4,776 bases of DNA from a virus (Duplodnaviria; Heunggongvirae; Uroviricota; Caudoviricetes), in the IMG/VR virus record IMGVR_UViG_2617271086_000001, positions 1 to 4,776 of that record; one strand, given 5' to 3'. The position numbers and the translations under genes were made by a program. Shown piece after piece: positions 1 to 4,776 of the stretch. Below the pieces are notes generated by a model. That model worked only from the letters and a program-made list of their open reading frames with translations, was not told the origin of the DNA and made no database searches. Numbering within the stretch: position 1 is the stretch's first letter; each line of letters begins with the position of its first letter.

Positions 1-426
1 GCAAACCTTACCGTTGCTACGTCAGAACAATGGCGTGATAAGCAAACTGGAGAGCAAAAGGAGCAGACGGAGTGGCACCGTGTGGTAATGAGCGGGAAAC
101 TGGCAGAAATTGCCAGCGAATATCTGCGAAAAGGCTCTGAGGTTTATCTTGAAGGCAAATTGCGGACAAGAAAATGGCAGGATCAAAGCGGACAGGATCG
201 GTTCACTACCGAAGTCATCGTGGGCGTTGGTGGAACCATGCAAATGCTTGGTGGCAAGCAAGGAGGCAATGAACAGTCTTCACCTCAGCGAAATAACGGT
301 CAGCAACAAAGACAGCAACCTCAGCAGCAAGGGAATCACAGCGAACCACCTATGGATTTTGACGACGATATCCCCTTTGCACCAGTAACTCTCCCCTTCC
401 CTCGTCACGCTATTCACGCAATTTAA
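1..426 (+). CDS. ssb: Single-stranded DNA-binding protein, 5'-truncated by the window edge (frame 1 is open from base 1)
   Basis: Translation from base 1 gives ...[68 protein letters not shown]..., closely matching the OB-fold core of E. coli SSB as recalled from memory; Gly/Gln-rich linker; [11 protein letters not shown] acidic tip motif (nt 346-378) followed by an unusual 15-codon extension before TAA at 424-426. Confidence 0.9.
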
Positions 427-434
427 GGACTTAC

Positions 435-983
435 ATGAATCACTTAATGGTTGACCTTGAAACAATGGGCAACGGGCCATACGCGCCAGTTATTTCTATT
501 GGGGCGGTATTCTTTGACCCGAATACCGGAGAAACAGGAGAAGAGTTCTCGGTAAATATCTCGCTTGAGTCATCAATGCGATATCGGGCGCGTCCTGACG
601 CTTCAACGATTTTATGGTGGCTGGAACAGAGTGAAGAAGCCAGAAAATCGCTAACCAGCAACACTCAGGAGCTTTCAACGGCTCTTTCATGGTTATCTGA
701 ATTCATCATAAAGAACGCTAACCACAAATTCGTTCAGGTTTGGGGGAATGGAGCATCATTTGACTGCGTTATTCTCCGCAACAGTTATTCGCTGACAGGA
801 CAGCCAGTTCCGTGGCAGTGGTGGAATGACCGCGACGTAAGAACAATCGTCGAGCTTGGAAAGGTAATAGGATTTGACCCTAAGCGAGATATGCCATTCA
901 AAGGAACTCGCCACAACGCGCTTGATGATGCCATCCACCAAGCCAAATACGTTTCAGCAATCTGGAAAAAATTAGCTAAATAA
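435..983 (+). CDS. DnaQ-like DEDDh 3'-5' exonuclease (RNase T/epsilon-like fold)
   Basis: 182-aa ORF with AAGGA Shine-Dalgarno 5 nt upstream of ATG 435; Exo I-like MVDLETMG, Exo II-like WGNGASFDC, Exo III-like HNALDDAIHQAKY motifs; start 9 nt after the ssb stop. Confidence 0.75.
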   Translation: MNHLMVDLETMGNGPYAPVISIGAVFFDPNTGETGEEFSVNISLESSMRYRARPDASTILWWLEQSEEARKSLTSNTQELSTALSWLSEFIIKNANHKFVQVWGNGASFDCVILRNSYSLTGQPVPWQWWNDRDVRTIVELGKVIGFDPKRDMPFKGTRHNALDDAIHQAKYVSAIWKKLAK

Positions 984-999
984 TCAACAGGAGAAAAAC

Positions 1000-1296
1000 A
1001 TGCCAGCGCCTCTGTATGGTGCGGATGACCCGCGCCGCTGTTCCGGCAATTCCGTATCGGAGGTGCTGGATAAATTCAGAAAAAACTACGACCTGATAAT
1101 GTCGCTACCGCAGGAAACGAAAGAGGAAAAGGAATTTCGCCACTGTATATGGCTTGCAGAGAAAGAAGAACGCGAGCGAATTTACCAGACATCAATCCGA
1201 CCATTCCGCAAAGCCACATATACCCACTCCCCTGAATATATCGACCCGCGCCTGCGTAATTACCGCTCACGCTATGGCGCTATCAGTAATGACTGA
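1000..1296 (+). CDS. Phage early protein, hypothetical; possibly Abc2-like anti-RecBCD protein (recollection only, unverified)
   Basis: 98-aa ORF with AGGAG SD about 8 nt upstream of ATG 1000; charged, Arg/Lys-rich; the N-terminus [14 protein letters not shown] resembles my memory of P22 Abc2-family proteins; it sits directly downstream of the ssb/exonuclease genes. Confidence 0.5.
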
Positions 1297-1306
1297 GGAA
1301 TTTACC

Positions 1307-1471
1307 ATGAGAGGACTTGCATACAATCCCGGCATTCTTCCGGCAGAAATGATTATTCGCCAACGCGTAAAGCCAATGCCATCGAGAGAGGAATTGCTTA
1401 AGAGAAATTCTTTTCCATCAGTGAATCAAAACAAATATCTGAATGCGATGTTGCGGAGTGGGAAGAAATGA
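1307..1471 (+). CDS. Hypothetical small phage protein (54 aa)
   Basis: ATG 1307 preceded by GAGG (1295-1298) at 8 nt spacing; stop overlaps the next start in an ATGA junction (1468-1471). The track's longer 1154 start would overlap the preceding gene and lacks an SD. Confidence 0.45.
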
Positions 1472-1881
1472 AACAAATGTCACTAATTGAGATGGATGGA
1501 TTTCTTAAAGGTAAATGCATCCCAAGTGATTTAAAGGTTAACGAAACAAACGCTGAATATCTGGTGCGTAAATTTGCTGAAGCGGAGGCCAAGTGCGCGG
1601 CGCTGGCAGCGGAGAATGCGGCGCTTAAACAGTCGGAGAAGGAATTTAATAACTTCTGTCGTCAGGAGTACTACGGTTGGGAGGACAACTTCACGGAAAC
1701 CCCAGCCACCGATGCTTTCCTGGCTGAAGTACGGGCGCAGGGCGTGGATATGGCTCGTAACGCGATGATTGATTTTGTTGATGGTGAAGTTGGGCCAAAC
1801 AAGAACGTTCCGGGGCTGATTAGAGGCGCAGAGATATGCGTAAGTATTGCTGAACAGCTTCGCAAAGGAGGCAACCAGTGA
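1468..1881 (+). CDS. Coiled-coil phage accessory protein, possibly Ead/Ea22-like
   Basis: 137-aa ORF; Ala/Glu-rich heptad-like segment [23 protein letters not shown]; ATGA overlap with the upstream gene and GTGA overlap with the downstream gene. Confidence 0.55.
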
Positions 1882-2177
1882 CTGTATGTCTTATTGATAA
1901 ACGTCGACGTGGGCAACAAATACCATCTGTTGAAATGCCGAATCACACATGGTTTTGCGTACTTGATATCGATGGTATGGATGCGTTGGTTGACACTCGT
2001 CATTACTGCGATACCGCAACAGCTACTCCGGCGAAAGCAAAGAAAATGGCTGCTCTGATAGAAAACTGGACTCCACCTGATGGTTGGTGCAATGGGAATG
2101 ATCGAGATTGGCATGAAAAAATGAAGGGCTATATCTGCGATTTCTTACGTAAATGCAACGGATTCAGGGTGATGTGA
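1878..2177 (+). CDS. Hypothetical phage protein (99 aa, Cys/Trp/His-rich)
   Basis: GTG start at 1878 preceded by AGGAGG (1866-1871) at 6 nt spacing; GTGA overlap with the upstream stop; no recognisable family. Confidence 0.5.
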   Translation: MTVCLIDKRRRGQQIPSVEMPNHTWFCVLDIDGMDALVDTRHYCDTATATPAKAKKMAALIENWTPPDGWCNGNDRDWHEKMKGYICDFLRKCNGFRVM

Positions 2178-2178
2178 C

Positions 2179-2586
2179 ATGAACAAGATTGACTATCAGG
2201 CACTGCGTGAAGCGGCAGAGAAAGCCGGTGAAGATAAGTGGCAGGCTAAAAAAATAAATGGTGATTTTTTTGTTATTCGTCACGGTAGTTATACAAGACA
2301 GCATGGCTACACATCGTATCAACCCATTGCGGAGATTGATTGTAAGCCAGTCCGGGATTTTGTTGCCAAGGCTAATCCGGCTACCGTACTGGAATTACTG
2401 GATGAACTGGAAGCAGCAAAAAAGCGCATTGCAGAACTGGAAGCGCGGGAAATATCGCTCCCGGAACGTAGCAGCATGCTTCATCGAACAGATTTTCACG
2501 ATGATTACCAAACGGTAATGGCATACAAAGTTTCTGAAGTCATCGCTGCAATCCGCGCCGCAGGCATTCGCATCAAAGGAGAGTGA
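2179..2586 (+). CDS. Ead/Ea22-like family protein
   Basis: 135-aa ORF; N-terminal MNKIDYQALREAAEKAGEDKW and central LLDELEAAKKRIAELEAR coiled-coil are characteristic of lambdoid Ea22/Ead proteins as I recall them; starts 1 nt after the upstream stop. Confidence 0.6.
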   Translation: MNKIDYQALREAAEKAGEDKWQAKKINGDFFVIRHGSYTRQHGYTSYQPIAEIDCKPVRDFVAKANPATVLELLDELEAAKKRIAELEAREISLPERSSMLHRTDFHDDYQTVMAYKVSEVIAAIRAAGIRIKGE

Positions 2587-2587
2587 G

Positions 2588-2779
2588 ATGGACGGACAAA
2601 TATCAATCGTTCGACCAGGAGCATGTGACGATCGCGAAATACGAATAATTATTCGTCTGGCAATGTGGAAAGCAATAACTGCTCTCATTACCCCAGAAAA
2701 TCTCGCATTAGCATTAACAGGAAAGTCAGACCTGCCAGTAGAGCTAAAGCTGCGAAATGTTGAGATTAAGGTGAAATAG
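2588..2779 (+). CDS. Hypothetical small phage protein (63 aa)
   Basis: ATG 2588 with AAGGAG (2576-2581) at 6 nt spacing; 1 nt gap after the previous stop; no recognisable family. Confidence 0.45.
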   Translation: MDGQISIVRPGACDDREIRIIIRLAMWKAITALITPENLALALTGKSDLPVELKLRNVEIKVK

Positions 2780-2781
2780 CT

Positions 2782-3585
2782 ATGACCACTATTACCAAAG
2801 AACGTATCGAATTATTCATTAAAAATCCGCTTGAAAACGGGCTTACTCGTGGCGAACAAATGGAACTGGCACGAATTGCACTGGCATCACTGGAACGCGA
2901 ACAGATTCGCCACGAGCATGCCAAATGGTCTGACTCCACATTTGGCTGCGTTGGCCCCATTGGTCCACTGAAACACCTCTCAAAAGAGGCACTGGAAGCC
3001 GCAGCCGAACCAGACGATCTTAGCGAGTGGGCTGATATGCAGTTTCTGTTGTGGGATGCACAGCGCCGTGCTGGCATCAGCGATGCTGAAATTACCGCTG
3101 CTATGGAAGATAAATTGAAGATCAACATGGAGCGCCAGTGGCCTGAACCAAAAGATGGTGAGCCTCGCTTGCACATTAAAGAACCCGGCAACTCTCCGGT
3201 AATTCCGGATGGTTTATCCACGGTATGCGCTGAGGCTTATCAGGTTGTAGGAGTTATGGCAGATGCGCTTGGTGTATTCGGTGATGCAGCAGTACAGAAA
3301 GTTCTGGATAACCTGTCACAGCAAAAACTTGTTCACAGAGATGTGCTGCCGTTCTCGCTTCCGGTGACTCCGGATGGTTGGATAAGCTGTAGTGAGCGAA
3401 TGCCGGATAGCAAAACAGCCGTTCTTGTTGCCAGGGAGTTTGACAGGAAAGGTTACTGGCGAATGAAATGGGCGACTTACATCCCTGGGCATCCTGACGC
3501 TAATGATGGGTGGATAATTCCTGGTGCGTCGTGGAAACCGTCACACTGGATGCCGCTACCAGAGCCGCCGCAGGAGGCGAAATGA
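2782..3585 (+). CDS. MazG-like dATP/dGTP pyrophosphohydrolase domain (DUF550) fused to a C-terminal DUF551 domain
   Basis: 267-aa ORF; N-terminal all-alpha region with acidic clusters (ELARIALASLEREQIRHEH; EALEAAAEPDDLSEWADMQFLLWDAQ; MEDKLKINMERQWPEP) resembling MazG-type NTP pyrophosphatases; C-terminal DGWISCSERMPD...HWMPLPEPP matches the DUF551 signature as recalled; AAGGTGA SD at 7 nt spacing. Confidence 0.7.
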   Translation: MTTITKERIELFIKNPLENGLTRGEQMELARIALASLEREQIRHEHAKWSDSTFGCVGPIGPLKHLSKEALEAAAEPDDLSEWADMQFLLWDAQRRAGISDAEITAAMEDKLKINMERQWPEPKDGEPRLHIKEPGNSPVIPDGLSTVCAEAYQVVGVMADALGVFGDAAVQKVLDNLSQQKLVHRDVLPFSLPVTPDGWISCSERMPDSKTAVLVAREFDRKGYWRMKWATYIPGHPDANDGWIIPGASWKPSHWMPLPEPPQEAK

Positions 3586-3863
3586 TGGACTCCTTCGCAA
3601 AATATACAATTATTGACTGGATGGCCTTCCTTCAGGTTTTGCTCATCTGGTTTTATATGGCTTACAGGAGTGGGCAGTGGATTGTCAGTGTAGCCTGTAG
3701 CAAGGGATGGCGTTGGTGGAACCGAAAGAATAAAAAAGCACTGGCATTGGATTCGTTTTACGAAGCATTCAATCTTAACAGCCTTCAGCCTGGTTCTGTC
3801 ATTGTAGTCACCACTCAAAGCGGCATGACCATTCAGATTCATAAACCAAAAGAGGAAAAATGA
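3582..3863 (+). CDS. Small membrane protein (about 93 aa, one predicted N-terminal transmembrane helix)
   Basis: AGGAGG (3572-3577) upstream of tandem ATGs at 3582 and 3585; ATGA overlap with the DUF550/551 stop; hydrophobic segment YTIIDWMAFLQVLLIWFYMAY followed by a basic stretch WRWWNRKNKK (positive-inside topology). Confidence 0.55.
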   Translation: MMDSFAKYTIIDWMAFLQVLLIWFYMAYRSGQWIVSVACSKGWRWWNRKNKKALALDSFYEAFNLNSLQPGSVIVVTTQSGMTIQIHKPKEEK

Positions 3864-3949
3864 TGTGGCCTATATGTGTTAATTGCGGACGGATGTGCCT
3901 ATCTGGATGGTGCCGAAAGTGCGACAAATGCACGAAGAAAAGACAATAA
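3860..3949 (+). CDS. Cys-rich micropeptide (29 aa, MMWPICVNCGRMCLSGWCRKCDKCTKKRQ), putative zinc-ribbon-like
   Basis: Absent from the ORF track (too short). Tandem ATGs at 3860 and 3863 overlap the upstream stop (TGA 3861-3863); AGAGG at 3851-3855; six Cys including a CxxC pair and a C-x2-C-x2-C run; followed by a terminator-like hairpin. Confidence 0.35.
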   Translation: MMWPICVNCGRMCLSGWCRKCDKCTKKRQ

Positions 3950-3953
3950 CAAT

Positions 3954-3980
3954 CCTCGCACTCGCGGGGATTTCTTTTAT
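3954..3980 (+). terminator. Putative intrinsic terminator
   Basis: Stem CCTCGC (3954-3959), loop ACTC, stem GCGGGG (3964-3969) with one G-U wobble, then T-rich tract ATTTCTTTTAT; lies right after the micropeptide stop in the only sizeable intergenic gap. Confidence 0.35.
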
Positions 3981-4017
3981 CTGAACTCGCTACGGCGGTT
4001 TTTTATGGAGATGATAA

Positions 4018-4185
4018 ATGCACTTCCGAGTCACAGGTGAATGGAATGGAGAGCCATTCGACAGAGTTATCGAAGCAGAGGACATCAATGACTGCTATAA
4101 CCACTGGATGATATGGGCGCAGATAGCACATGCAGAAGTAACCAATATTCGAATTGAAGAACTGAAAGAACACCAAGCCGCCTGA
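4018..4185 (+). CDS. Hypothetical small protein (55 aa), moron-like
   Basis: ATG 4018 with GGAG (4007-4010) at 7 nt spacing; translation MHFRVTGEWNGEPFDRVIEAEDINDCYNHWMIWAQIAHAEVTNIRIEELKEHQAA; absent from the ORF track; bracketed by two terminator-like hairpins. Confidence 0.5.
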   Translation: MHFRVTGEWNGEPFDRVIEAEDINDCYNHWMIWAQIAHAEVTNIRIEELKEHQAA

Positions 4186-4200
4186 TGGCGGTTTCTTTTT
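4175..4200 (+). terminator. Putative intrinsic terminator
   Basis: GC stem CCGCC (4178-4182) / GGCGG (4187-4191), loop TGAT, extended by flanking A-T and G-U pairs, followed by TTTCTTTTT; overlaps the stop codon of the 55-aa ORF. Confidence 0.5.
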
Positions 4201-4215
4201 GCCTGGAGAATTAAG

Positions 4216-4407
4216 ATGACCGATACCAGCCTGATTCCTGAGAAAGAAGTGATGAACAAGCTCGGTGTTTCATCACGTCAGACAATCTGGAACTATACCA
4301 AACGGCACGGATTTCCAAAGCCAGTCAGAACCCACCCCAAATCATACCTTCGTGAAGCTGTTGAGGGGTGGATTCTTAACGGTGGCGTTAATCAGAAATG
4401 CTCCTGA
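4216..4407 (+). CDS. xis: AlpA/Xis-family excisionase / phage transcriptional regulator (helix-turn-helix)
   Basis: 63-aa ORF with GGAG (4204-4207) at 8 nt spacing; EKEVMNKLGVSSRQTIWNYTKRHGFPKPVRTHPKSYLREAVEGWI fits the AlpA/excisionase HTH pattern (ligand-free small DNA binder, conserved FPKP and W); adjacent to the integrase. Confidence 0.8.
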   Translation: MTDTSLIPEKEVMNKLGVSSRQTIWNYTKRHGFPKPVRTHPKSYLREAVEGWILNGGVNQKCS

Positions 4408-4776
4408 TGTGCCAGAACAATTTATCAGCGTGAAGCTCATACGCTTTGCGCTGAGCCTCTATCCAGTCGTGTTTATTGTATACGGACATTATCCCGCCAA
4501 GTTCATGACCGAGCATTCGCTCAGTAACATGAGGCTCGACATTCATCTCGGACAGACGTGTAACAAGCGTTCTTCTGAAATCGTGTGTTCGCCAGTAACC
4601 GAGATCCATCCCTCCCCTTATTCTATTTACGAATCGGTTGGCTGCAGCGATGCTGATCGGTTTGTTTATGTCTTCTCCAGGGAAAAGAACATCATTGTAC
4701 GTTGTCATGGCCTTTTCGAGGAAAGGCTTAATTTGTTCGAAGATTGGACGGCGGATAACATTACCCATCTTGCTAT
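4388..4776 (-). CDS. int: Tyrosine recombinase (phage integrase), C-terminal catalytic region; 5' part lies beyond the window
   Basis: Minus-strand frame open to the window edge; HDFRRT (His-x-x-Arg box), MLGHE and VYNKHDW (catalytic Tyr region) motifs; stop at 4388-4390 (TAA on the minus strand). Confidence 0.9.
   Translation of the reverse strand, partial: SKMGNVIRRPIFEQIKPFLEKAMTTYNDVLFPGEDINKPISIAAANRFVNRIRGGMDLGYWRTHDFRRTLVTRLSEMNVEPHVTERMLGHELGGIMSVYNKHDWIEAQRKAYELHADKLFWHIRSISD

Follow-up and report, generated by a model that had tools for sequence, protein, structure and literature searches.

The DNA analysed here (the window, 4,776 nt in its full length) carries, behind the 3' part of an ssb gene and a gene for a DnaQ-like exonuclease, two small open reading frames encoding 98 and 54 amino acids; a preliminary description of this DNA had claimed both, and both are real and lie where it placed them (Table 1). 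They are genuine genes and not chance ORFs, because their products give full-length matches to Pfam and PHROG families and because variation among their homologues is biased toward third codon positions. The first is abc2, which codes for a P22-type anti-RecBCD protein and ends at TGA 1294-1296. The second runs from ATG 1307 to a stop at 1471, has a product that starts MRGLAYNPG and ends RSGKK, and belongs to the DUF2737 family. (A mechanical listing of ORFs gives it only as the tail of a longer ORF in the same frame, starting at TTG-1154.)

Table 1. Features at the abc2-DUF2737 locus (positions in the window)
Feature	Position	Strand	Basis and remarks
ssb, 3' part, truncated by the 5' edge of the window	1-426	+	Pfam PF00436 (SSB), E = 1.1e-14; PHROG 44
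DnaQ-like (Rv2179c-like) 3'-5' exonuclease, 182 aa	435-983	+	PF16473, 245.7 bits, full length; PHROG 255
AGGAG Shine-Dalgarno of abc2	989-993	+	6 nt 5' of the ATG; sequence inspection
abc2, 98 aa, P22-type anti-RecBCD protein 2	1000-1296	+	PF11043, PHROG 656, P22 homology
GAGGA Shine-Dalgarno of the DUF2737 gene	1295-1299	+	overlaps the abc2 TGA; 7 nt before ATG 1307
DUF2737 gene, 54 aa (= P22 orf56, HK620 hkaI, HK97 gp38)	1307-1471	+	PF10930, PHROG 1117
Next gene, 137 aa, in the P22 eaE position, coiled-coil	1468-1881	+	PHROG 614/492/368; no Pfam family

The abc2 product matches the Pfam profile PF11043 (Anti-RecBCD_p2) end to end, its residues 1-98 aligning with profile positions 1-97 of 97 at 206.1 bits (E = 6.9e-62; the curated Pfam cut-off is 25 bits, for this profile as for PF10930, which defines DUF2737), and matches PHROG 656, 'abc2 anti-RecBCD', with E = 8.6e-56. 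A tblastn search of 50,697 phage records finds it in 225, including P22, whose abc2 (BK000583 abc2; J02471 abc-2) specifies a protein that is 92.9% identical to the window copy. Its sole match among solved structures is chain A of 8B1T/8B1U, 'Anti-RecBCD protein 2' (phmmer, E = 2.4e-56). Residues 1-64 are the same as in that chain, position 65 is changed from Ala to Ser, and the other differences are located in the C-terminal tail; within the stretch that is modelled in the structures (residues 3-66), A65S is the only difference. Pro68 is also kept (IRP68FRK). Variation among abc2 homologues falls mainly at third codon positions, as indicated by a pN/pS of 0.41. (None of the NCBIfam models matched abc2, the DUF2737 gene or the neighbouring genes.) Judged by its sequence, the 98-aa gene of the window is the orthologue of P22 abc2, and an assignment that the preliminary description had made, naming comparison with P22 Abc2 as its check, is borne out by clear homology.

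The 54-aa protein had been thought to have no obvious family, and this does not stand: it is a DUF2737 protein (PF10930; 110.5 bits, residues 1-53 on profile positions 1-53 of 53), it matches PHROG 1117 with E = 1.3e-37, and it is the counterpart of P22 orf56, which lies directly 3' of P22 abc2 and to which it is 77% identical. The copy in phage CurroJimenez_Bas106 is identical in its entirety (100%). Relative to P22 orf56, HK620 hkaI and HK97 gp38, the window ORF is a full-length member of the same family, occupies the same place after abc2 and differs in no notable respect. Variable sites are distributed 8/5/27 over the first, second and third codon positions, with a pN/pS of 0.10, among 50 unique homologous sequences of the same length; by this measure the gene is under purifying selection.

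The family profile, run against 1.84 billion representative proteins, retrieves only 106 clusters at 50% identity, nearly all of proteins 45-80 aa long. Alignment of diverse members shows a conserved core motif, also present in the window copy, and a variable N-terminal half: in a set of 24 diverse members M1, R33 and F36 never vary, and conservation reaches at least 90% at P23, E29, S35, N42 and L45. AlphaFold2 models are of low confidence (mean pLDDT 63.6 and pTM 0.22 with 13 sequences; 68.7 and 0.27 with 24) and yield no confident fold, proposing two or three short helices, two of them inside the core motif. A search of solved structures with DUF2737 gave only a chance-level match (E = 1.8), and a literature search found no paper naming DUF2737, or hkaI together with HK620, and no member with a described function; papers that mention orf56 together with abc2 deal, to judge by their titles, with other subjects. 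The C-terminal motif of DUF2737 is widespread in phages of the genera Jerseyvirus and Kagunavirus, and phage records matching DUF2737 number 698, versus 225 for Abc2; phage Jersey itself has no abc2 close to the gene, so that the family is wider than its abc2-linked subfamily.

The abc2 and DUF2737 ORFs do not overlap; 10 nt lie between the abc2 stop and ATG 1307, and this junction reads TGAGGAATTTACCATG without change in 78 of 83 related loci. The stop/start overlap at this locus (ATGA, 1468-1471) joins the DUF2737 gene to the gene downstream, and is seen in Cronobacter phage ENT47670 as well as in the window. The preliminary description had called the small ORF coupled to abc2, which is right in the sense of close spacing, with a stop codon and ribosome-binding site that are shared, but not in the sense of overlapping reading frames, since the real overlap is with the downstream gene. 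DUF2737 would be translated from a ribosome-binding site embedded in the abc2 stop codon and would be overlap-coupled to the next gene.

The frame of DUF2737 is open for about 50 codons 5' of its ATG, inside abc2 (the ORF that starts at TTG-1154 overlaps the 3' half of abc2), and some database proteins have N-terminal extensions in this frame. A programmed +1 frameshift fusing abc2 and the DUF2737 frame into one protein would account for such an arrangement. However, the open stretch shrinks to just 21 codons in P22 and to 28-48 codons in divergent alleles, and is conserved no further than DNA similarity would account for; the DUF2737 ATG and ribosome-binding site are conserved; family members begin at the same Met; and the extended database proteins turn out to be deletion fusions to unrelated genes. 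With the upstream open frame not conserved and the ATG and ribosome-binding site conserved, the frameshift fusion is rejected, its probability being next to nil.

The same long proteins were considered for domain fusions that might hint at the function of DUF2737, and these were rejected too, the proteins being products of deletion or read-through that fuse DUF2737 uninformatively to phage genes nearby. In three of them (P0122, P0123 and P0124) unrelated N-termini (residues 1-30 of the exonuclease, the start of an Erf-like protein and unassigned sequence) are all joined at one site to the abc2 3' end read in its alternative frame (IPTSLKLTRACV), after which DUF2737 follows; the stretch concerned corresponds approximately to window positions 1217-1306, in the DUF2737 frame. 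The pattern looks like that of deletions which have arisen repeatedly and share one junction, with most of abc2 lost and DUF2737 kept.

The place of abc2 behind SSB and exonuclease genes, in the context of a recombination module, had also been proposed in the preliminary description, and both the Pfam matches and the gene order of relatives agree with it. The best phage matches to window positions 900-1600 are CurroJimenez_Bas106 (96%) and mEpX2 (95% DNA identity). The order of genes in mEpX2 is Erf-like annealing protein, ssb, 3'-5' exonuclease, abc2, DUF2737, a hypothetical gene, xis and int. E. coli EC38 provides the closest complete E. coli chromosome, with 74% of the window at 98% identity, in a lambdoid prophage that adjoins sbcB and reads from cI to genes for a Rad52-like protein, ssb, a 3'-5' exonuclease, a 'phage anti-RecBCD protein' and a 'DUF2737 family protein'; ea-type genes, an HTH gene and a convergent integrase come after DUF2737. 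In mEpX2 and EC38 alike, ssb is annotated at the position that matches the window. The gene for an annealing protein would fall 5' of window base 1, where the relatives have an Erf-like (mEpX2) or a Rad52-like (EC38) protein.

The region would accordingly belong to a mosaic lambdoid E. coli prophage, in whose early-left (P_L-type) operon it forms the distal part of the recombination module; the probable gene order is annealing protein (5' of the window), ssb, DnaQ-like exonuclease, abc2, DUF2737, non-essential ea genes, a xis-like gene and int. The association of a DnaQ-like nuclease with Abc2 in lambdoid Rec modules has already been described (PMC12315714). Rec modules of the mEpX2 and epsilon34 type have the same order of annealing protein, SSB, DnaQ-like exonuclease and Abc2; their downstream ea region and integration module differ from those of the window, which is normal lambdoid mosaicism.

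Sigma-70-like promoter matches are absent from the whole window (positions 1-4776; 0, versus 6.0 +/- 2.4 expected from shuffled sequence), and the strongest intrinsic-terminator-like hairpins of the + strand, at approximately 3951-3982 and at 4175-4204, are downstream of the abc2 and DUF2737 genes. The lack of promoter matches and the distal position of the hairpins fit one long antiterminated early-left transcript. The Chi octamer does not occur in the window, but this is uninformative, with only 0.18 occurrences expected by chance; Rfam has no match in the whole window.

Abc2 is a textbook case of a phage hijacking a hub of host DNA repair and immunity instead of plainly inhibiting it. Residues ~3-66 of Abc2 adopt an elongated helical shape that lies against RecC at its Chi-recognition ('inactivated helicase') domains, Pro68 occupies the active site of the host protein PpiB, and the activities of RecBCD in vitro are scarcely altered; these structural data agree with Murphy's model, in which Abc2 steers the products of RecBCD to the phage recombinase (PMC9836394). 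From the near-identity of the two proteins we infer that RecC binding and its functional consequences extend from P22 Abc2 to the window protein. By homology, the window Abc2 would bind the RecC Chi-recognition (inactivated helicase) domains through its helical N-terminal two thirds and would leave the helicase and nuclease activities of RecBCD largely intact. It is thought to block the response of RecBCD to Chi and the loading of RecA; resected DNA ends would then be passed to the phage's own annealing protein. Pro68 of the window protein would engage the host's PpiB.

The two proteins differ by one residue in length (98 aa in the window and 97 in P22) and share, besides the sequence features listed above, a location at the distal end of an early-left recombination module with the same small gene next in line. 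The differences comprise a small number of substitutions together with one extra residue in the C-terminal tail, which is disordered in the structure (THSPEY in the window, TKFIE- in P22), the genes upstream (erf-abc1 in P22, ssb and the DnaQ-like exonuclease in the window) and the host, which is Salmonella for P22 and E. coli for the window. An Abc2 that adjoins a phage SSB is already accepted in print for HK620, whose protein is ~94% identical to that of P22 (PMC5928155). Gam of phage λ and gp5.9 of T7 likewise target RecBCD and likewise serve to protect and use phage DNA ends. In contrast with Abc2, which binds RecC and modulates, these mimic DNA, obstruct the site at which RecBCD binds it and inhibit every activity of the enzyme (PMC9836394), and they have no sequence relationship to Abc2.

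It might be objected that the window comes from a mosaic prophage, of which the best complete E. coli genome holds at most 74% in one place, and that neighbouring prophages contain pseudogenes, so that abc2 here might be part of a decaying remnant no longer making active protein. We regard this as very unlikely: the ORF is intact, of full length and preceded by a good (AGGAG) ribosome-binding site, the N-terminal 64 residues are those of P22 Abc2, and the flanking operon genes are all intact.

Abc2 proteins fall into two allele classes. Members of the second class (loci L007, L011, L020, L027, L063, L065-L068, L071 and L076) are 62-77% identical to the window copy. Differences between the classes are concentrated in residues ~23-64, the RecC-contacting helices of 8B1T, with residues 1-22 and the C-terminal tail (from RPF onward; disordered in the structure) conserved between classes. 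The DUF2737 proteins that follow abc2 of either class are 96-100% identical. The class split could be an adaptation to RecC variants, or else a mosaic breakpoint inside abc2.

A tie of DUF2737 to Abc2 was examined in close and in divergent loci. Close to the window the association is essentially invariant: in each of 82 close loci (the 80 closest IMG/VR loci, P22 and mEpX2) abc2 is immediately upstream of DUF2737, with the same 10-nt spacer, and the pairing is maintained across Abc2 alleles ranging in identity from 62% to 99%. Among the loci of divergent DUF2737 members (116 in number, retrieved with queries P0130, P0133, P0136 and P0150, a few of them being the same contig twice) a recognisable Abc2 is adjacent in only 21, and what lies upstream in the others is usually a gene for either a small HTH-like or an unrelated protein. 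In Cronobacter phage ENT47670, DUF2737 follows RecT-like and exonuclease genes, without abc2; in phage Jersey (genus Jerseyvirus) it is found amid other small genes (L085, 2941-3099) and has no abc2 nearby. The gene at window positions 1468-1881 has a homologue directly behind DUF2737 in all 82 close loci and in 50 of the 116 divergent ones. The wider family context speaks against a strict tie of DUF2737 to Abc2.

One subgroup of the divergent loci should be considered separately. In 11 IMG/VR loci retrieved with P0136 (L169-L179), the divergent DUF2737 is preceded (by 48 nt in L169) by a protein of ~96 aa (MPSPLPGAG...RFKEYRFRLGAVSNN) that falls into one BLASTP single-linkage cluster with Abc2 and matches the C-terminal half of PF11043 at a sub-threshold E = 0.034. 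This protein may, from such sequence relationships, represent a very distant Abc2-like family. Because it clusters with Abc2, some of the loci counted as lacking abc2 may hide very distant homologues.

[quoted passage not shown] Such a partnership is nevertheless unlikely. The complex with RecBCD forms when P22 Abc2 and RecBCD are co-expressed with no other phage protein (PMC9836394). Most divergent loci have DUF2737 next to no recognisable Abc2, and phage Jersey and ENT47670 have it without abc2. The RecC-contacting region of Abc2 varies by class while DUF2737 stays nearly constant, so there is no sign of co-variation; the deletion variants discard most of abc2 and retain DUF2737; and the stop/start overlap of DUF2737 is with the gene in the P22 eaE position, not with abc2. 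A more general proposal would make DUF2737 an effector with some link to Abc2 or the recombination module: it might, for example, be a further modulator, acting on RecBCD, PpiB or the annealing protein, or a small anti-defence factor that masks Abc2-type tampering with RecBCD from host sensors. This proposal is given the same low probability.

The best reading is that DUF2737 is an independent early accessory peptide and not an obligate Abc2 cofactor. The peptide would act by binding a partner through its conserved core motif. On balance, it sits where the Rec module gives way to the ea region and, in the lambdoid phages of enterobacteria, moves together with the abc2 3' end. Taken together, it is highly probable that the window abc2 is a functional orthologue of P22 abc2 in a lambdoid early-left Rec module and that DUF2737 is a separate conserved gene, independent of Abc2.

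The abc2-DUF2737 segment (472 bp) has matches in 1376 of 5426 complete E. coli genomes, with at least 80% of its length covered in 976, and PGAP already labels the pair 'phage anti-RecBCD protein' and 'DUF2737 family protein'. This is an already known and routinely annotated gene pair, and the observation is correct but not new. The window's abc2, 93% identical to the solved P22 protein and common in E. coli, adds nothing new, and DUF2737 is a catalogued family that follows abc2 in hundreds of known phages. What remains of interest is only the role of the small conserved 54-aa peptide.

Beyond DUF2737 the window continues into an ea-type run of four small genes (1468-1881, 1878-2177, 2179-2586 and 2588-2779) that are joined by overlaps or gaps of 1-4 nt and belong, in order, to PHROG 614, DUF7739, an Ead/Ea22-like family and PHROG 1222. 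Next in the ea region is a gene (2782-3585, + strand) for a 267-aa protein in which a dATP/dGTP pyrophosphohydrolase (PF04447, residues 42-137) is fused to DUF551 (residues 199-264). A 29-aa Cys-rich ORF (MMWPICVNCGRMCLSGWCRKCDKCTKKRQ; 3860-3949, + strand), with two CxxC-like pairs and no family match, overlaps the stop of a DUF4752 gene (3585-3863), and the terminator-like hairpin at 3951-3982 is directly 3' of it. At the far end of the window, a gene for a 63-aa AlpA/Xis-like HTH protein (4216-4407, + strand) converges on a tyrosine integrase gene (4388-4776, - strand), the two overlapping at their 3' ends by 20 nt. At no single place in a complete E. coli genome is the window present over more than 74% of its length, in keeping with its being a mosaic. 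The int genes of mEpX2 and P22 point the same way as the early-left operon, unlike that of the window; the arrangement of the window recurs beside sbcB in EC38.
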